Assembly (NCBI GenBank): GCA_963678315.1
Contig: OY782781.1
Span: 1,984,001 to 2,048,000, forward strand
Direction: 5' to 3'
Length of the DNA: 64,000 bases
Source of the DNA: Candidatus Cloacimonadales bacterium
GTDB taxonomy: Bacteria; Cloacimonadota; Cloacimonadia; Cloacimonadales; JAFGVF01
Shown here: piece after piece, positions 49,337-57,803 of the stretch
Layout: every line of letters begins with the position of its first letter
How positions within the stretch are numbered: the stretch's first letter is position 1
Made by a program: the position numbers and the translations under genes
The notes under the pieces: model-generated
Seen by the model: only the letters and a program-made list of their open reading frames with translations
Told to the model about the DNA's origin: nothing
Databases searched by the model: none

Positions 49337-50521
49337 TTATTTCAAAATAACTTGTTTGCTAGTAACAAACTTAGATTTTGGTAATTCAACTCTAAGGAAA
49401 TATATACCTGAAGGCAATGACTCCTTCAGTAAACTTGATAGCTCTAAGCTAGCACTTTTAGATGGATTACTAAATTCTGAAATCTTTTGACCCTTTAAAT
49501 TATAAACTGAAACAGAAATAATACTTTCATTAGATTTCACAGTGAAAGAGTTTCTAGACGGATTAGGGTAGCTAGTAATGGAAGGAAGAGCATTCTCAAT
49601 GTTTTGCTCATGGTTGGAGACTACAGGAATATATTCATAGGAATACTTAGTAGAGTTTTCCCAATTGCTAGTATCATTTGACCATAGTTGAGTTATAAGA
49701 AGGTCAGCGTATATGTAATCAGAATACTGATAAGACGCTAGGCTGTAGTTAATCCATTCATTATTTTCTGCAGTCAGACCTGTAACATTATTTAAAATCA
49801 TTGCATCATTATAAGAGTAAACATACTTTGAATAATCTTGCCAGGACTCATTACTCCAAGTTTGCCATATTTCATTTATAAGATAACTATTAATGTCCCT
49901 CTCATAGTTACATTTTGAATAATTATCCCAATTTACACCATCGTTGGAAACTTCCCAAAGCTCATAAATCTTATATCCTAAGAGATTGTATTCATAACTG
50001 ACTCTGTACTGCTCATTATCTTTTCCAGAAGAAAAATAAACCCATTCTTCATCAACAAGAATTCCATCTTCGTAAGTATAATTAATTGTTAATGAATCTT
50101 GCCAAGCAGTATTAACCCATTTTTGTAGATTATAGCTTTCAACTAAATTATCATCATTATATGAGTAATTCTCTTGTCTATAATTATAGAGAGTAGGAAT
50201 GTAAATTTGATATAGCATATTTGTTAAATTATTATTAGTGTCGTATGTGTAAGTATAGTATTCAAAATCAGTCCATATCTCTTCAATATTCTTATCAACA
50301 TCTATTGATGTAACATTATTTACATTATATGTATAGATACTATTATAGATATCTTCCCATTGATTATCTAGGTATTCTGAATAAGTATACTCTGATATAA
50401 GTCCTTCAGTACTCCTAGTGTTGTAAATGTCATGAGTTGGCTTAAGAATCAATGTCTTATCAATTGCAGTGATTGAAAGAATACTAAGAACGATACATAA
50501 AATTAAGAATGTCTTTTTCAT
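49337..50521 (-). CDS. Secreted Tyr/Trp-rich beta-repeat protein with T9SS-like CTD
   Basis: Signal peptide; roughly 30-aa repeats of the type 'YTYD.N.N......W....W....Y.Y'; CTD 'SYPNP...VYNLKGQKI...SGIYFL..KQVILK'. Confidence 0.75.
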   Translation of the reverse strand: MKKTFLILCIVLSILSITAIDKTLILKPTHDIYNTRSTEGLISEYTYSEYLDNQWEDIYNSIYTYNVNNVTSIDVDKNIEEIWTDFEYYTYTYDTNNNLTNMLYQIYIPTLYNYRQENYSYNDDNLVESYNLQKWVNTAWQDSLTINYTYEDGILVDEEWVYFSSGKDNEQYRVSYEYNLLGYKIYELWEVSNDGVNWDNYSKCNYERDINSYLINEIWQTWSNESWQDYSKYVYSYNDAMILNNVTGLTAENNEWINYSLASYQYSDYIYADLLITQLWSNDTSNWENSTKYSYEYIPVVSNHEQNIENALPSITSYPNPSRNSFTVKSNESIISVSVYNLKGQKISEFSNPSKSASLELSSLLKESLPSGIYFLRVELPKSKFVTSKQVILK

Positions 50522-55375: not shown

Positions 55376-56728
55376 TTATAATGATCTTAAATATTCAGGT
55401 ATTTTCTCTTGTCTGTTGATATCTTCTAAAACTTCTTTGCTTCTGATTTCATAAGTTTCACCTGTTTCTGAAACAAGAACTACAGCAGGTCTGTACTCAA
55501 TAAACTGCATCCATTGGGTCACATTGTAAGCACCTACTGGATGTACAATAAGTTTATCACCAACTTTTAAATCAGGATAAGGTGTAGCATGTTTAACTAT
55601 GTCGATATTCATACATAGAGGACCATAGAAGACAGTTGATAGAGAGGTTCCTGAAGTTGGTTGTGCAGGAAGAACTTTAAGATTATACCACCAAGTAGTA
55701 AATAAGATATTTACACCTGCGTCAATAATTACAGCTCTTTGACCAGAAGCTAAGTCTTTTTTAGCTAATACAGAGGTAATAAGAGTTCCTGATTCGTCAA
55801 CCAGTGTTCTACCTGTTTCTAGAATCAGTTTTGGTTTTTCATCGATAGCAAACTTTGATTCATTAAATGCTTTTCCTATTGCTGAAGCGTATTGGTCATA
55901 AGAAGGTGAAGCAAATTCCCCTGGTGTATACTGATTATGAAGAGTGTTCTTAGAAGCGAATCCACCACCTAAATCAATGTATTCAACTGTAATACCTAGA
56001 TTATCTTTGATATTTTGAGCTAATGTTAAGAGCTTTGAAGCTGAAATATAGTAAGGGTTTGCATCAAGCATAAATGTTCCGATATGAGCATGAAGACCTA
56101 TTAGTTCGAGTTTATCTGCAGTAATTAATCTTTGAACAGTTCTGTAAGCTTCGCCATTATCATAGTTGAATCCAAATCTTTGCCATTGAGGATATATTCC
56201 TGTGTCCATGTTGATTCTAATTGCAACTTTAGGTTTTATGCCTAGTTCTTCTGCAACTTCTTCAAGTAAAAGAAGCTCATTGAAATGGTCTATATGCACA
56301 GTTACATCATCTTCTAGAACTGTTATTAAATCTTCCTTTCTTTTTCCAGGACCATTAAATATAATATCTTTGCCTTCAACACCTAAATGTTTTGCCATAT
56401 CATATTCCATGATACTAACTATCTCTGCTTTTGCTCCCTCTTGATGGAATATTGAGCAGATTGCGCCCAAATAGTTAGTTTTGTATGACCACGATACTTC
56501 TGAATTAGGATAATATTCTCTTATAATGGACTGAAGCTCTCTGTAACTATCACGCATTTTATTCTCTGAAAAGACAAAGAGTGGAGAACCATATTTCTTA
56601 ACTAATTCAGTAACTTCTATACCGTTAACATGTGTCTGGTAGTTAATTCTATTTTTACTATATGCTATTTTATTGCTTATGCCTGCTTGATTTCTTTGTA
56701 TTCTAGGTGGATTATATTTCTTTTTCAT
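55376..56728 (-). CDS. PLP-dependent fold-III (Orn/DAP/Arg family) decarboxylase with N-terminal extension
   Basis: YGSPLFVF, SYKTN (PLP lysine), IFNGPGK, HAHIGT, DLGGGF, ETGR, GPLCMNID, VGAY. Substrate unknown; not called lysA. Confidence 0.88.
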   Translation of the reverse strand: MKKKYNPPRIQRNQAGISNKIAYSKNRINYQTHVNGIEVTELVKKYGSPLFVFSENKMRDSYRELQSIIREYYPNSEVSWSYKTNYLGAICSIFHQEGAKAEIVSIMEYDMAKHLGVEGKDIIFNGPGKRKEDLITVLEDDVTVHIDHFNELLLLEEVAEELGIKPKVAIRINMDTGIYPQWQRFGFNYDNGEAYRTVQRLITADKLELIGLHAHIGTFMLDANPYYISASKLLTLAQNIKDNLGITVEYIDLGGGFASKNTLHNQYTPGEFASPSYDQYASAIGKAFNESKFAIDEKPKLILETGRTLVDESGTLITSVLAKKDLASGQRAVIIDAGVNILFTTWWYNLKVLPAQPTSGTSLSTVFYGPLCMNIDIVKHATPYPDLKVGDKLIVHPVGAYNVTQWMQFIEYRPAVVLVSETGETYEIRSKEVLEDINRQEKIPEYLRSL

Positions 56729-57803
56729 TTTTTACTCCTTTAATTAATTCTCCCATTGATGATAATTGTCCCATTACATCGATGCTGGAAATAATATCTT
56801 CTGCGTGTCTAATGAATATAGTTCCTGTTTTGAACTCTTTCATTGGATCTACATGTTCATTTAAGGCTAATTTAAAGACCATGGCTGGTAGATTCTGTCC
56901 AGCACCTTCTGCTAGTTTTATCCATGCTGGGAATCTTGGATTTATCTCAATCAAATAGAAGTTATCTTGGTGGTCTTTAATTAATTCAAGTTCACATGGA
57001 CCTCTCCATGATATTGCCTTAATAACATCTTCTGCAAATTTGTTCAATAATGGATTGTTTACAACAACGCCACCAAATCCTTTACCTTTATCAGTGATGA
57101 TTAGTTTTCTTTGTGGAATCATTCCAAGAATGTTACCTTGACCATCACCAACTAATGATATATTGAATTCATCCCCAATTACAGCTTCTTGTGCTAGTAC
57201 TGGAAGCCCCCATTTGTTCTTTATAAGATTGAAGTAATATAGTACATCATTAATGTTGTTAGCCTTATAAGCTTCATAGAAGTTACCTTTTATATACATA
57301 GGAAAATTCATCTTATATTCAAGGCTGTATACTTGAGCTATATCAGTGACATATTCAGTGTGGGGAACATTAATTCCCTTGTCTGGTAGAATTCTAAATA
57401 TTTTAGACTTGTCACGCATTAAGAGTTGTTCTTCAGAAGGAAGGTAAACTTTAATTCCTCTCTTGTTCAATTCTTTCTCAAGTCTAATATAGCCAATGAT
57501 TTCAGAATCTAAAGTTGGAATAAGAACATCAATCTTAGTTTTAGTAAGTATGTAATCTAGCCTGGATAATATTGCGTCTTTACCGTCAGCTGGGTAAGGC
57601 ATCTGATAAATTTCTTGAGCTAAATCATCAACATAAACACCAGACTCAAGATTGTCATAGATTAAACCAACAATCTTCCCTTTAAAACCAGCATTTCTAA
57701 TAGATCTGATTATAGGAACACCTGGTTGAGGATTATCGCCAGTCTTAAGACCTGTCACTGCTAAAACTAAATCTTCATGAGATAATTTAATACACATTTC
57801 CAC
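56712..57803 (-). CDS. ATP-grasp ligase (CarB-like stand-alone)
   Basis: LIPTLDSE, RDK, FPMYIKG, QEAVIGDE, C-terminal 'YLIEINPRFPAW'. Confidence 0.85.
   Translation of the reverse strand: MEMCIKLSHEDLVLAVTGLKTGDNPQPGVPIIRSIRNAGFKGKIVGLIYDNLESGVYVDDLAQEIYQMPYPADGKDAILSRLDYILTKTKIDVLIPTLDSEIIGYIRLEKELNKRGIKVYLPSEEQLLMRDKSKIFRILPDKGINVPHTEYVTDIAQVYSLEYKMNFPMYIKGNFYEAYKANNINDVLYYFNLIKNKWGLPVLAQEAVIGDEFNISLVGDGQGNILGMIPQRKLIITDKGKGFGGVVVNNPLLNKFAEDVIKAISWRGPCELELIKDHQDNFYLIEINPRFPAWIKLAEGAGQNLPAMVFKLALNEHVDPMKEFKTGTIFIRHAEDIISSIDVMGQLSSMGELIKGVKNEKEI

Follow-up and report, generated by a model that had tools for sequence, protein, structure and literature searches.

The stretch of DNA studied here (called the window in the following; 64,000 nucleotides, positions 1,984,001 to 2,048,000 of contig OY782781.1 in the GenBank assembly GCA_963678315.1 of a Candidatus Cloacimonadales bacterium) carries a tight row of genes on its minus strand. 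This row consists of a PqqD-family gene, the genes for an ATP-grasp ligase and a pyridoxal phosphate (PLP)-dependent decarboxylase, and a gene for a membrane protein that combines a urea-transporter-like (UT) domain with an M23 peptidase domain; genes for tetratricopeptide repeat and secreted proteins follow (Table 1). Our subject is the N-terminus of the decarboxylase, MKKKYNPPRIQRNQAGISNKIA (translation of the minus-strand open reading frame [ORF] 55376-56728), which in a longer stretch reads MKKKYNPPRIQRNQAGISNKIAYSKNRINYQTHVNGIEVTELVKKYGSP... A previous reading of this DNA, made from the sequence alone, had proposed that this N-terminal tail resembles the YxxPxL-bearing leaders of lasso peptides, that the PqqD-family protein of the operon is a RiPP recognition element (RRE; RiPP, a peptide made by the ribosome and modified after translation) that docks onto it, and that the leader peptide missing from the locus is in this way fused to the enzyme. 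The N-terminal letters are as that sequence-only reading gave them, and positions 56639-56728 of the window indeed correspond to codons 1-30.

Table 1. Features of the cassette and of the decarboxylase tail (positions in the window).
Feature	Position	Strand	Basis
Stand-alone PqqD-family protein, lasso B1-type RRE (closest match), 86 residues	57787..58047	-	PF05402 3e-09
ATP-grasp ligase, 363 residues	56712..57803	-	PF15632 2.9e-10, PF02655 3.6e-06
Fold-type III PLP decarboxylase, 450 residues	55376..56728	-	PF02784 3.1e-34, PF00278 2.9e-12
UT-like membrane domain fused to M23 peptidase domain, 715 residues	53219..55366	-	PF03253 7.8e-45, PF01551 2.2e-16
Codons 1-30 of the decarboxylase, N-terminal extension (tail)	56639..56728	-	Translation; model alignments
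Y5-N-P-P8-R-I10, RRE-binding-type motif [Y/W]xxPx[L/V/I]	56699..56716	-	Conservation and published motif
N19-K20-I21-A22, second conserved tail block (consensus N-K-[FY]-[GA])	56663..56674	-	Equals lasso-leader positions -3 to +1
K20 codon of the tail	56669-56671	-	
Ribosome-binding site (AAGGAG), 6 nt upstream of the decarboxylase ATG at 56728	56735..56740	-	Read from the sequence

The extension of about 30 residues that had been described ahead of the usual fold-type III start is real, since the models of LysA and FslC, like essentially all solved relatives, begin after the tail. Residue 30 of the decarboxylase pairs with position 7 of the LysA model (TIGR01048), and residue 38 pairs with position 18 of the FslC model. 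A profile of the family recovers 30 solved fold-type III decarboxylases at E-values of at most 1e-20, with FslC (7kh2), LysA (1twi), and BtrK (7ru7) as the best matches. The 29 solved relatives with a scored stretch start at profile positions 26-75, the exception being the weak LysA match 3vab, which starts at position 10; essentially no solved relative thus covers the tail. The ATG at position 56728 is the only usable start of the gene. From this ATG on, the gene shares its first 17 nt with the end of the ATP-grasp gene, and no further in-frame ATG, GTG, or TTG is met until codon 58, which lies within the conserved core. Among 80 related loci, the junction between the ATP-grasp and decarboxylase genes is mostly a -4 or -1 overlap, and the ATG is found at the same place. 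Given the ribosome-binding site 6 nt upstream, the lack of an alternative start before codon 58, and the conserved junction, the objection that the true start might lie downstream of the motif fails. In the AlphaFold2 (AF2) model of the decarboxylase monomer (mean predicted local distance difference test score [pLDDT] 85.6), residues 1-3 and 6-26 score below 50, the core is confident from about residue 30 onward, and the tail is not packed on the core. Judged from this monomer model, the tail is probably disordered, as would suit a flexible linear motif.

Three scans of species-representative genomes yielded 239 loci, most of them from metagenome-assembled genomes (MAGs). In the first set, 76 of the 80 decarboxylase ORFs possess the motif [YFW]xxPx[ILVM] within their first 30 residues, and the other four are cut by a contig end or broken. 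The first two sets and the window together comprise 159 non-duplicate loci; all 154 of these with a complete N-terminus carry the motif. For all three sets combined, the loci with PqqD, ATP-grasp, and decarboxylase genes have it in every complete N-terminus (227 of 227), a count that leaves out the copy from the genome of origin (L081), the duplicates L150, L158, and L217, the loose PqqD loci L162-L164, and the seven orphan loci considered below. These loci are distributed over more than 15 phyla, and their hosts include Cloacimonadota, Bacteroidota, Ignavibacteriota, Myxococcota, Planctomycetota, Zetaproteobacteria, Campylobacterales, Omnitrophota, Leptospiraceae, Gemmatimonadota, and Aquificales, along with others; Thermodesulfatator autotrophicus S606 (L229) is a cassette-bearing organism available in culture. 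P8, G16, and K20 are invariant in an alignment of 33 sequences and I10 is at least 90% conserved; among the 154 tails, Lys is found 15 residues after the aromatic residue in 149 and Gly or Ala 17 residues after it in 143.

The motif is thus conserved in the homologs of the cluster. With so short a motif, a chance resemblance had been considered from the outset. Of the 2208 ATG-started ORFs of at least 100 residues in the genome of origin, 7 carry the motif within residues 1-12 and 32 within residues 1-30, and the decarboxylase alone combines it with the spacing of the Gly and Lys residues. Because the motif is this rare (7/2208) and its full spacing is unique to the decarboxylase, chance is not the explanation, and its conservation in 227 of 227 complete N-termini speaks against chance as well.

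With a PF05402 score of 37.5 bits against a cut-off of 23.4 and a length of 86 residues, the PqqD-family protein of the operon is a small stand-alone PqqD, and it is encoded by the single PqqD gene of its genome (97.9% complete). A profile built from 24 orthologs reaches the lasso B1 proteins TfuB1 (6jx3, 6.6e-10), TbiB1 (5v1u, 1.4e-09), and PbaB1 (9x90, 2.5e-05), whereas the PqqD protein of the PQQ pathway (3g2b) is reached at just 0.023. The predicted fold gives the same picture: the AF2 model of the protein (pLDDT 83.4) was aligned by Foldseek with TM-scores of 0.71 to 6jx3_B and of 0.74-0.75 to 5v1u/5v1v, compared to 0.55 for the PQQ-pathway PqqD, and it matches the winged helix-turn-helix (wHTH) fold of the solved B1-leader complexes. 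In the accessible part of a study on B1 proteins (Popov et al., 2026, PMC13381572), the binding cleft is described as divided by a conserved Phe residue (PbaB1 F83), and D70 of LppB is reported to form a hydrogen bond with the hydroxyl group of the leader Tyr. An ungapped profile alignment maps PbaB1 F83 to F70, PbaB1 L87 to L74, and LppB D70, whose position is equivalent to Q79 of PbaB1, to D66 of the operon's protein; in the PqqD family each of these three residues is at least 90% conserved, and the cleft residues thus appear to be in place as far as this sequence alignment can tell. By sequence and predicted fold, the protein is closest to the leader binders of the lasso B1 type, whose pocket residues it keeps, in agreement with its assignment as a leader-binding RRE by the sequence-only reading.

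In most cassettes, PqqD is a protein of 80-90 residues whose gene overlaps the ATP-grasp gene. Longer PqqD forms are listed 69 times (P0271-P0339) and are mostly of the TetR type; one is a sigma-70::PqqD fusion (P0337), and a PqqD::ATP-grasp fusion is not among them. The TetR-type form is typical of a clade with Trp-type tails (Zetaproteobacteria, one Desulfobulbaceae locus, and some Gammaproteobacteria), in which the PqqD domain constitutes the C-terminus of a protein of about 265-280 residues with an N-terminal TetR-family portion (PF00440) of about 190 residues; such fusions are found at six of the nine Trp-tail loci (PqqD genes of L072, L074, L075, L078, L093, and L112). A PF05402 match, at the level of the domain only, was also obtained in the control genome of Bacteroides thetaiotaomicron; if it belongs to this cassette, the species would be a host amenable to genetics.

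The motif tracks with the PqqD gene. Of the 201 loci that carry the motif and have at least 1500 nt of upstream DNA, 199 have an adjacent PqqD match, and the genomes of the remaining two possess a PqqD elsewhere (E-values of 5.5e-23 and 2.7e-16). In one of these two, a Riflebacteria genome (L114 and L163), the cassette is split: its PqqD gene lies on another contig beside an integrase fragment, and ahead of the ATP-grasp gene the same integrase fragment is found along with toxin-antitoxin-like genes. The split is probably the result of a mobile-element insertion.

A search for tail-less relatives with a four-sequence alignment returned cassette members only, all of which possess tails. A contrast set was obtained from a single tail-less metagenomic protein (P0137) and is small (7 loci, 5 genomes). 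The seven orphan loci (L165-L171), found in Methylococcales and Planctomycetes, encode close relatives of the decarboxylase; the six intact copies match the hidden Markov model (HMM) of the family with E-values of 1e-145 to 1e-190, and that of L170 is split. We detected no PqqD, ATP-grasp, or UT match in the fetched 5-kb flanks of the seven orphans, of which four only have at least 3 kb of upstream DNA, and no PqqD match in any of the five orphan-host genomes searched, a result to which the incompleteness of MAGs applies. The aromatic-anchored motif is found in none of the seven orphan decarboxylases: four are tail-less and three have a degenerate tail (e.g., SGAPAI...NKFGG). The expected coupling of the motif to the PqqD gene was thus observed on both sides of this comparison. 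The orphan loci adjoin genes for copper resistance (multicopper oxidase, CopB), Hsp90, or multihaem cytochromes.

Tail and putative binding pocket also vary together. Position 66 of PqqD is Asp with 175 of 181 Tyr-type tails and with 10 of 11 Trp-type tails, and it is a residue other than Asp (Tyr in seven, Ser in three, Phe in one) in all 11 paired loci with Phe-type tails. Such a change is physically sensible, since in the solved complexes position 66 is the acceptor of the Tyr hydroxyl; for the present we consider this co-variation of the aligned sequences to be suggestive only. Co-folding of PqqD with residues 1-40 of the decarboxylase gave scores of 0.54, 0.54, and 0.56 (best control, 0.08), with a partner pLDDT of at least 52 and with runs that agree in at least 79% of the contacts. 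Among reference pairs, 116 of 157 solved complexes attain the mark used for such scores, as do 2 of 215 mismatches, and values of 0.60 or below account for 18 of those 157 complexes and for both mismatches; solved lasso B1-leader complexes may, moreover, be remembered by the co-fold model. The co-fold reported no interface, and we do not count this check as evidence either way.

The layout of the tail resembles that of lasso leaders. In the accessible text of Popov et al. (2026, PMC13381572), the RRE-binding motif of leaders is given as [Y/W]xxPx[L/V/I/F/A], a pattern matched in the tail by Y5-x-x-P8-x-I10, and the portion of PMC10368454 available to us places the YxxPxL of lasso leaders at positions -17 to -12, a Thr recognition residue at -2, and Gly at +1. 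If Y5 is set at -17, P8 falls on -14, I10 on -12, K20 on -2, [FY]21 on -1, and [GA]22 on +1. Across the aligned loci, we observed that the tail appears to have two parts, one tracking PqqD and a second one tracking the UT protein. Where at least 3 kb of downstream DNA is available (182 loci), the tail Lys and the UT gene occur together in 168 and are both missing in 12; Lys without UT was found twice, and UT without Lys was not found. This association reflects a single change on the tree and carries little weight. The equivalent of K20 is replaced by Arg, Gln, Thr, or His in 12 loci, which belong to one clade, and in most of the gene fusions described next.

Fourteen ATP-grasp::decarboxylase fusions (824-934 residues) and one decarboxylase::UT fusion (P0352) were detected. 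All 15 (P0131, P0340-P0353) keep [YW]xxPx[IL] 39-46 residues ahead of the GSP anchor and hence at the same distance from the core; in the ATP-grasp::decarboxylase fusions (recurrent in Myxococcales/Polyangia), the motif is carried in the linker between the two domains. Five such fusions lie in Myxococcales genomes (L172-L175, L177), and PqqD lies upstream in all four that have upstream DNA. The sequence-only reading had offered two purposes for the docking, namely a tether that holds ligase and decarboxylase together or the presentation of the tail as the modified substrate. The pure tether is weakened by the covalent fusions, which keep the motif and, where upstream DNA exists, PqqD. Docking must accordingly do more than tether, because a rope between two enzymes that are already fused would be pointless. 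Lys20 as a universal acyl acceptor was rejected; the residue is exchanged in the 12 loci mentioned above, and a role of Lys as general acceptor is disfavored because Arg replaces it in most fusions.

In our preferred reading, to which we assign a probability of about 0.58, the decarboxylase carries in its first ~21 residues an integral docking peptide of the lasso-leader type that would position the enzyme for its partners. Y5, P8, and I10 would fit into the hydrophobic cleft of the B1-type RRE of the operon in the manner of YxxPxL leaders, and the ligand of the RRE would be the enzyme itself instead of a separate precursor peptide. Clamping of the tail would fix the position of the G16...N19-K20-[FY]21-[GA]22 segment, and of the enzyme along with it, with respect to the ATP-grasp ligase and, in cassettes that have one, to the UT/M23 membrane protein. 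As in RiPP systems, the purpose would be to present or to assemble, and not just to serve as a rope between two enzymes. Both the physical binding of the tail by PqqD and what this binding achieves are what we infer from the motif, its tracking with PqqD, and the kind of PqqD involved; to this extent the docking proposed earlier is partly supported, and the co-fold check gave it weak support only. An order in which the ligase acts before the decarboxylase would fit, because the closest relatives FslC and BtrK act on conjugated substrates.

A more far-reaching version, which we regard as doubtful, takes the tail as a full working leader of the lasso type with the enzyme as its core, so that the RRE would present residues 16-22 to the partner enzymes. 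Two routes might follow. In one, a cut between positions -1 and +1, after [FY]21, would mature or activate the decarboxylase at the membrane channel. In the other, the tail would serve as a swinging arm on which the ligase builds the substrate; the decarboxylase would act on it in cis, and the M23 domain would release it into the urea-transporter-like pore.

Several observations weigh against a docking peptide copied from lasso leaders, and part of them favor a tail that is intrinsic to the decarboxylase. The spacing of the tail matches that of lasso leaders, but the residue at -2 is Lys versus Thr, Ile, or Val. Its internal Gly is set at x5-G-x3, whereas the lasso leader consensus has Gly at x3-G-x5. 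The lasso B2 protease (PF13471) has no match in the genome of origin, and neither a lasso cyclase nor a B2 protease is among the Pfam matches of the operon (the cyclase family PF00733 was not searched genome-wide). In these respects the analogy is partial, and the motif is carried not by a stand-alone short precursor but in frame with a 450-residue enzyme. On the tree of the decarboxylases, the Phe-tail state arose only twice (one to two independent pairs), and because of this, an independent-pairs sign test of the co-variation cannot reach significance. Furthermore, since the orphans L165 and L166, which lack PqqD, still keep the second half of the tail (..NKFGG and ..NKLG), part of the tail may serve the enzyme itself. 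The tail might then be an arm that reaches onto the other subunit, a lid of the active site, or an autoinhibitory element; its likeness to lasso leaders would be coincidental, and PqqD would bind something else or nothing. We consider this unlikely. The aromatic anchor is lost where PqqD is absent (0/7 orphan loci; PqqD in 0/5 genomes) and kept wherever the triad of genes is present (227/227 loci), the PqqD residue that changes along with the Tyr-to-Phe exchange is the homolog of the acceptor of the leader-Tyr hydroxyl, and the AF2 monomer does not pack the tail.

Two further explanations leave the PqqD protein a binding role and differ in its partner or its purpose. A conventional small precursor peptide, missed because its ORF is short or unconserved and perhaps encoded elsewhere in the genome, could be the true ligand of the RRE and the substrate of the ATP-grasp ligase. 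Short ORFs are easily missed, and our genome-wide search covered tail-like ORFs only; in the genome of origin, an HMM of the tail returned the decarboxylase alone and no free-standing tail peptide. Between the upstream gene and PqqD, there is no ORF of at least 20 residues, and neither a free tail-like peptide nor a conserved extra small motif-bearing ORF was found in 160 loci. The genes overlap or abut in most loci and leave no room for a precursor gene, and a missed precursor would leave the perfectly conserved leader-like tail unexplained. We hold such a precursor to be highly improbable; the lack of a precursor ORF would be accounted for by the fused tail, as the sequence-only reading had suggested. 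Alternatively, PqqD might bind the tail for regulation, with the RRE sensing free decarboxylase tails and controlling the activity of the enzyme or the transcription of the operon. The TetR::PqqD proteins (~270 residues) at six of the nine Trp-tail loci and the sigma-70::PqqD protein P0337 point in this direction, but the TetR fusion is confined to one clade, PqqD elsewhere is the protein of 80-90 residues overlapping the ATP-grasp gene, and a fusion to a regulator may merely reflect which genes are neighbors. A regulatory role therefore strikes us as very unlikely.

In comparison with known systems, a docking peptide built into the enzyme has its nearest counterparts in the lasso/LPP B1 RREs (TfuB1/FusB1 6jx3, TbiB1 5v1u/5v1v, PbaB1 9x90, and LppB 9x8z), which share the motif, the wHTH kind of protein, and the pocket residues; lasso leaders share the spacing of 15 residues from Tyr to position -2 and the small residue at +1. 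In lasso systems, however, the leader resides on a precursor of 40-50 residues, whereas here it is the N-terminus of a 450-residue enzyme; the cassette differs furthermore in its lack of a B2 protease, in the Lys at -2 in place of Thr, and in its partner proteins (ATP-grasp ligase, PLP decarboxylase, and UT/M23 membrane protein). Among solved structures and NCBIfam models, the decarboxylase is matched best by the N-citrylornithine decarboxylase FslC/FigC of rhizoferrin synthesis (7kh2, 5.9e-90; NF041039, 243.8 bits), which likewise acts on an amino acid already ligated to an acid. It differs in having no tail (its alignment starts at profile position 26), and the score of the cassette enzyme stays under the model's cut-off of 500. 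We know of no report of an RRE or ATP-grasp partner of FslC. Among the closer solved relatives is also BtrK of the butirosin pathway (7ru7, L-glutamyl-[BtrI acyl carrier protein] decarboxylase; 7.8e-46). The BtrI/BtrJ/BtrK system also pairs an ATP-grasp ligase with a fold-type III decarboxylase that acts on a conjugated substrate. Its acyl carrier protein is a separate one and works through a thioester, whereas the present cassette has no carrier gene, possesses an RRE, and has its candidate arm within the enzyme. The LysW/LysX amino-group carrier system brings together an ATP-grasp ligase, an attachment point on a protein, and a metallohydrolase by which the product is set free; LysW is a protein of its own, employs its C-terminal Glu, and is not known to involve an RRE. 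The candidate Lys of the tail is not universal (Arg, Gln, Thr, or His in 12 loci). Re-use of RiPP recognition for a non-peptide product, with later release by a peptidase, is described for small molecules built on ribosomal scaffold peptides, such as fosfazinomycin on FzmZ (PMC13622209). There, the scaffold is a free short peptide with C-terminal chemistry, unlike the peptide fused to an enzyme found here.

To the best of our knowledge, neither this cassette nor an RRE ligand built into an enzyme has been described; we found no paper on either in the literature searched, with subscription journals and preprint supplements outside our reach, and in the accessible part of a recent survey of RREs (PMC12710340) neither the word decarboxylase nor the word urea occurs. 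Many RiPP pathways are organized by RRE-leader recognition, which also serves in genome mining for peptide natural products. If the proposed docking is true, orphan RREs without a precursor peptide need not flag undiscovered peptides, a widespread and uncharacterized ligase-decarboxylase-channel cassette would gain its first concrete protein-protein contact, and leader-guided assembly or processing of enzymes would become a mechanism to seek elsewhere. Should the tail even work as a full leader, RiPP-style leader-guided processing would operate on a full-size enzyme across more than 15 phyla.

Turning to the other proteins of the row, both PF02784 and PF00278 score above their cut-offs in the decarboxylase, which places it in the superfamily of fold-type III PLP decarboxylases. 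K83 in the W-S-Y-K-T-N-Y segment is invariant among 33 sequences and is the putative PLP lysine. With 230.6 bits against the LysA model (cut-off, 297.9) and 243.8 bits against the FslC model, the enzyme falls below the cut-offs of both families. Its genome possesses DapF (G000:C1:1927973-1928725) yet no decarboxylase above the LysA cut-off, and the cassette enzyme is the sole fold-type III decarboxylase present; either it doubles as LysA or the organism cannot make lysine. The ATP-grasp gene overlaps its neighbors on both sides, and its adjacency to the decarboxylase gene is conserved in related loci. Across 70 orthologs of the UT/M23 protein, conservation is at least 97% at the HxH and at the other M23 positions. 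A scan of the locus for promoters and terminators gave signals not above those of shuffled sequences. The final gene of the row (49337-50521) has a sorting domain of type IX secretion at its end (PF18962, 1.1e-10), so that a secreted or surface protein belongs to the operon. Variant cassettes are found at L085, L087, L088, L096, and L099 and at L172 and L187. Some of these variants possess an extra gene of about 1 kb between ligase and decarboxylase, and their UT protein matches the UT part of the HMM only, with no M23 part. Others without UT adjoin genes for a DUF5939 protein and a Ser/Thr kinase, or for a P450, a methyltransferase, and a radical S-adenosylmethionine protein.

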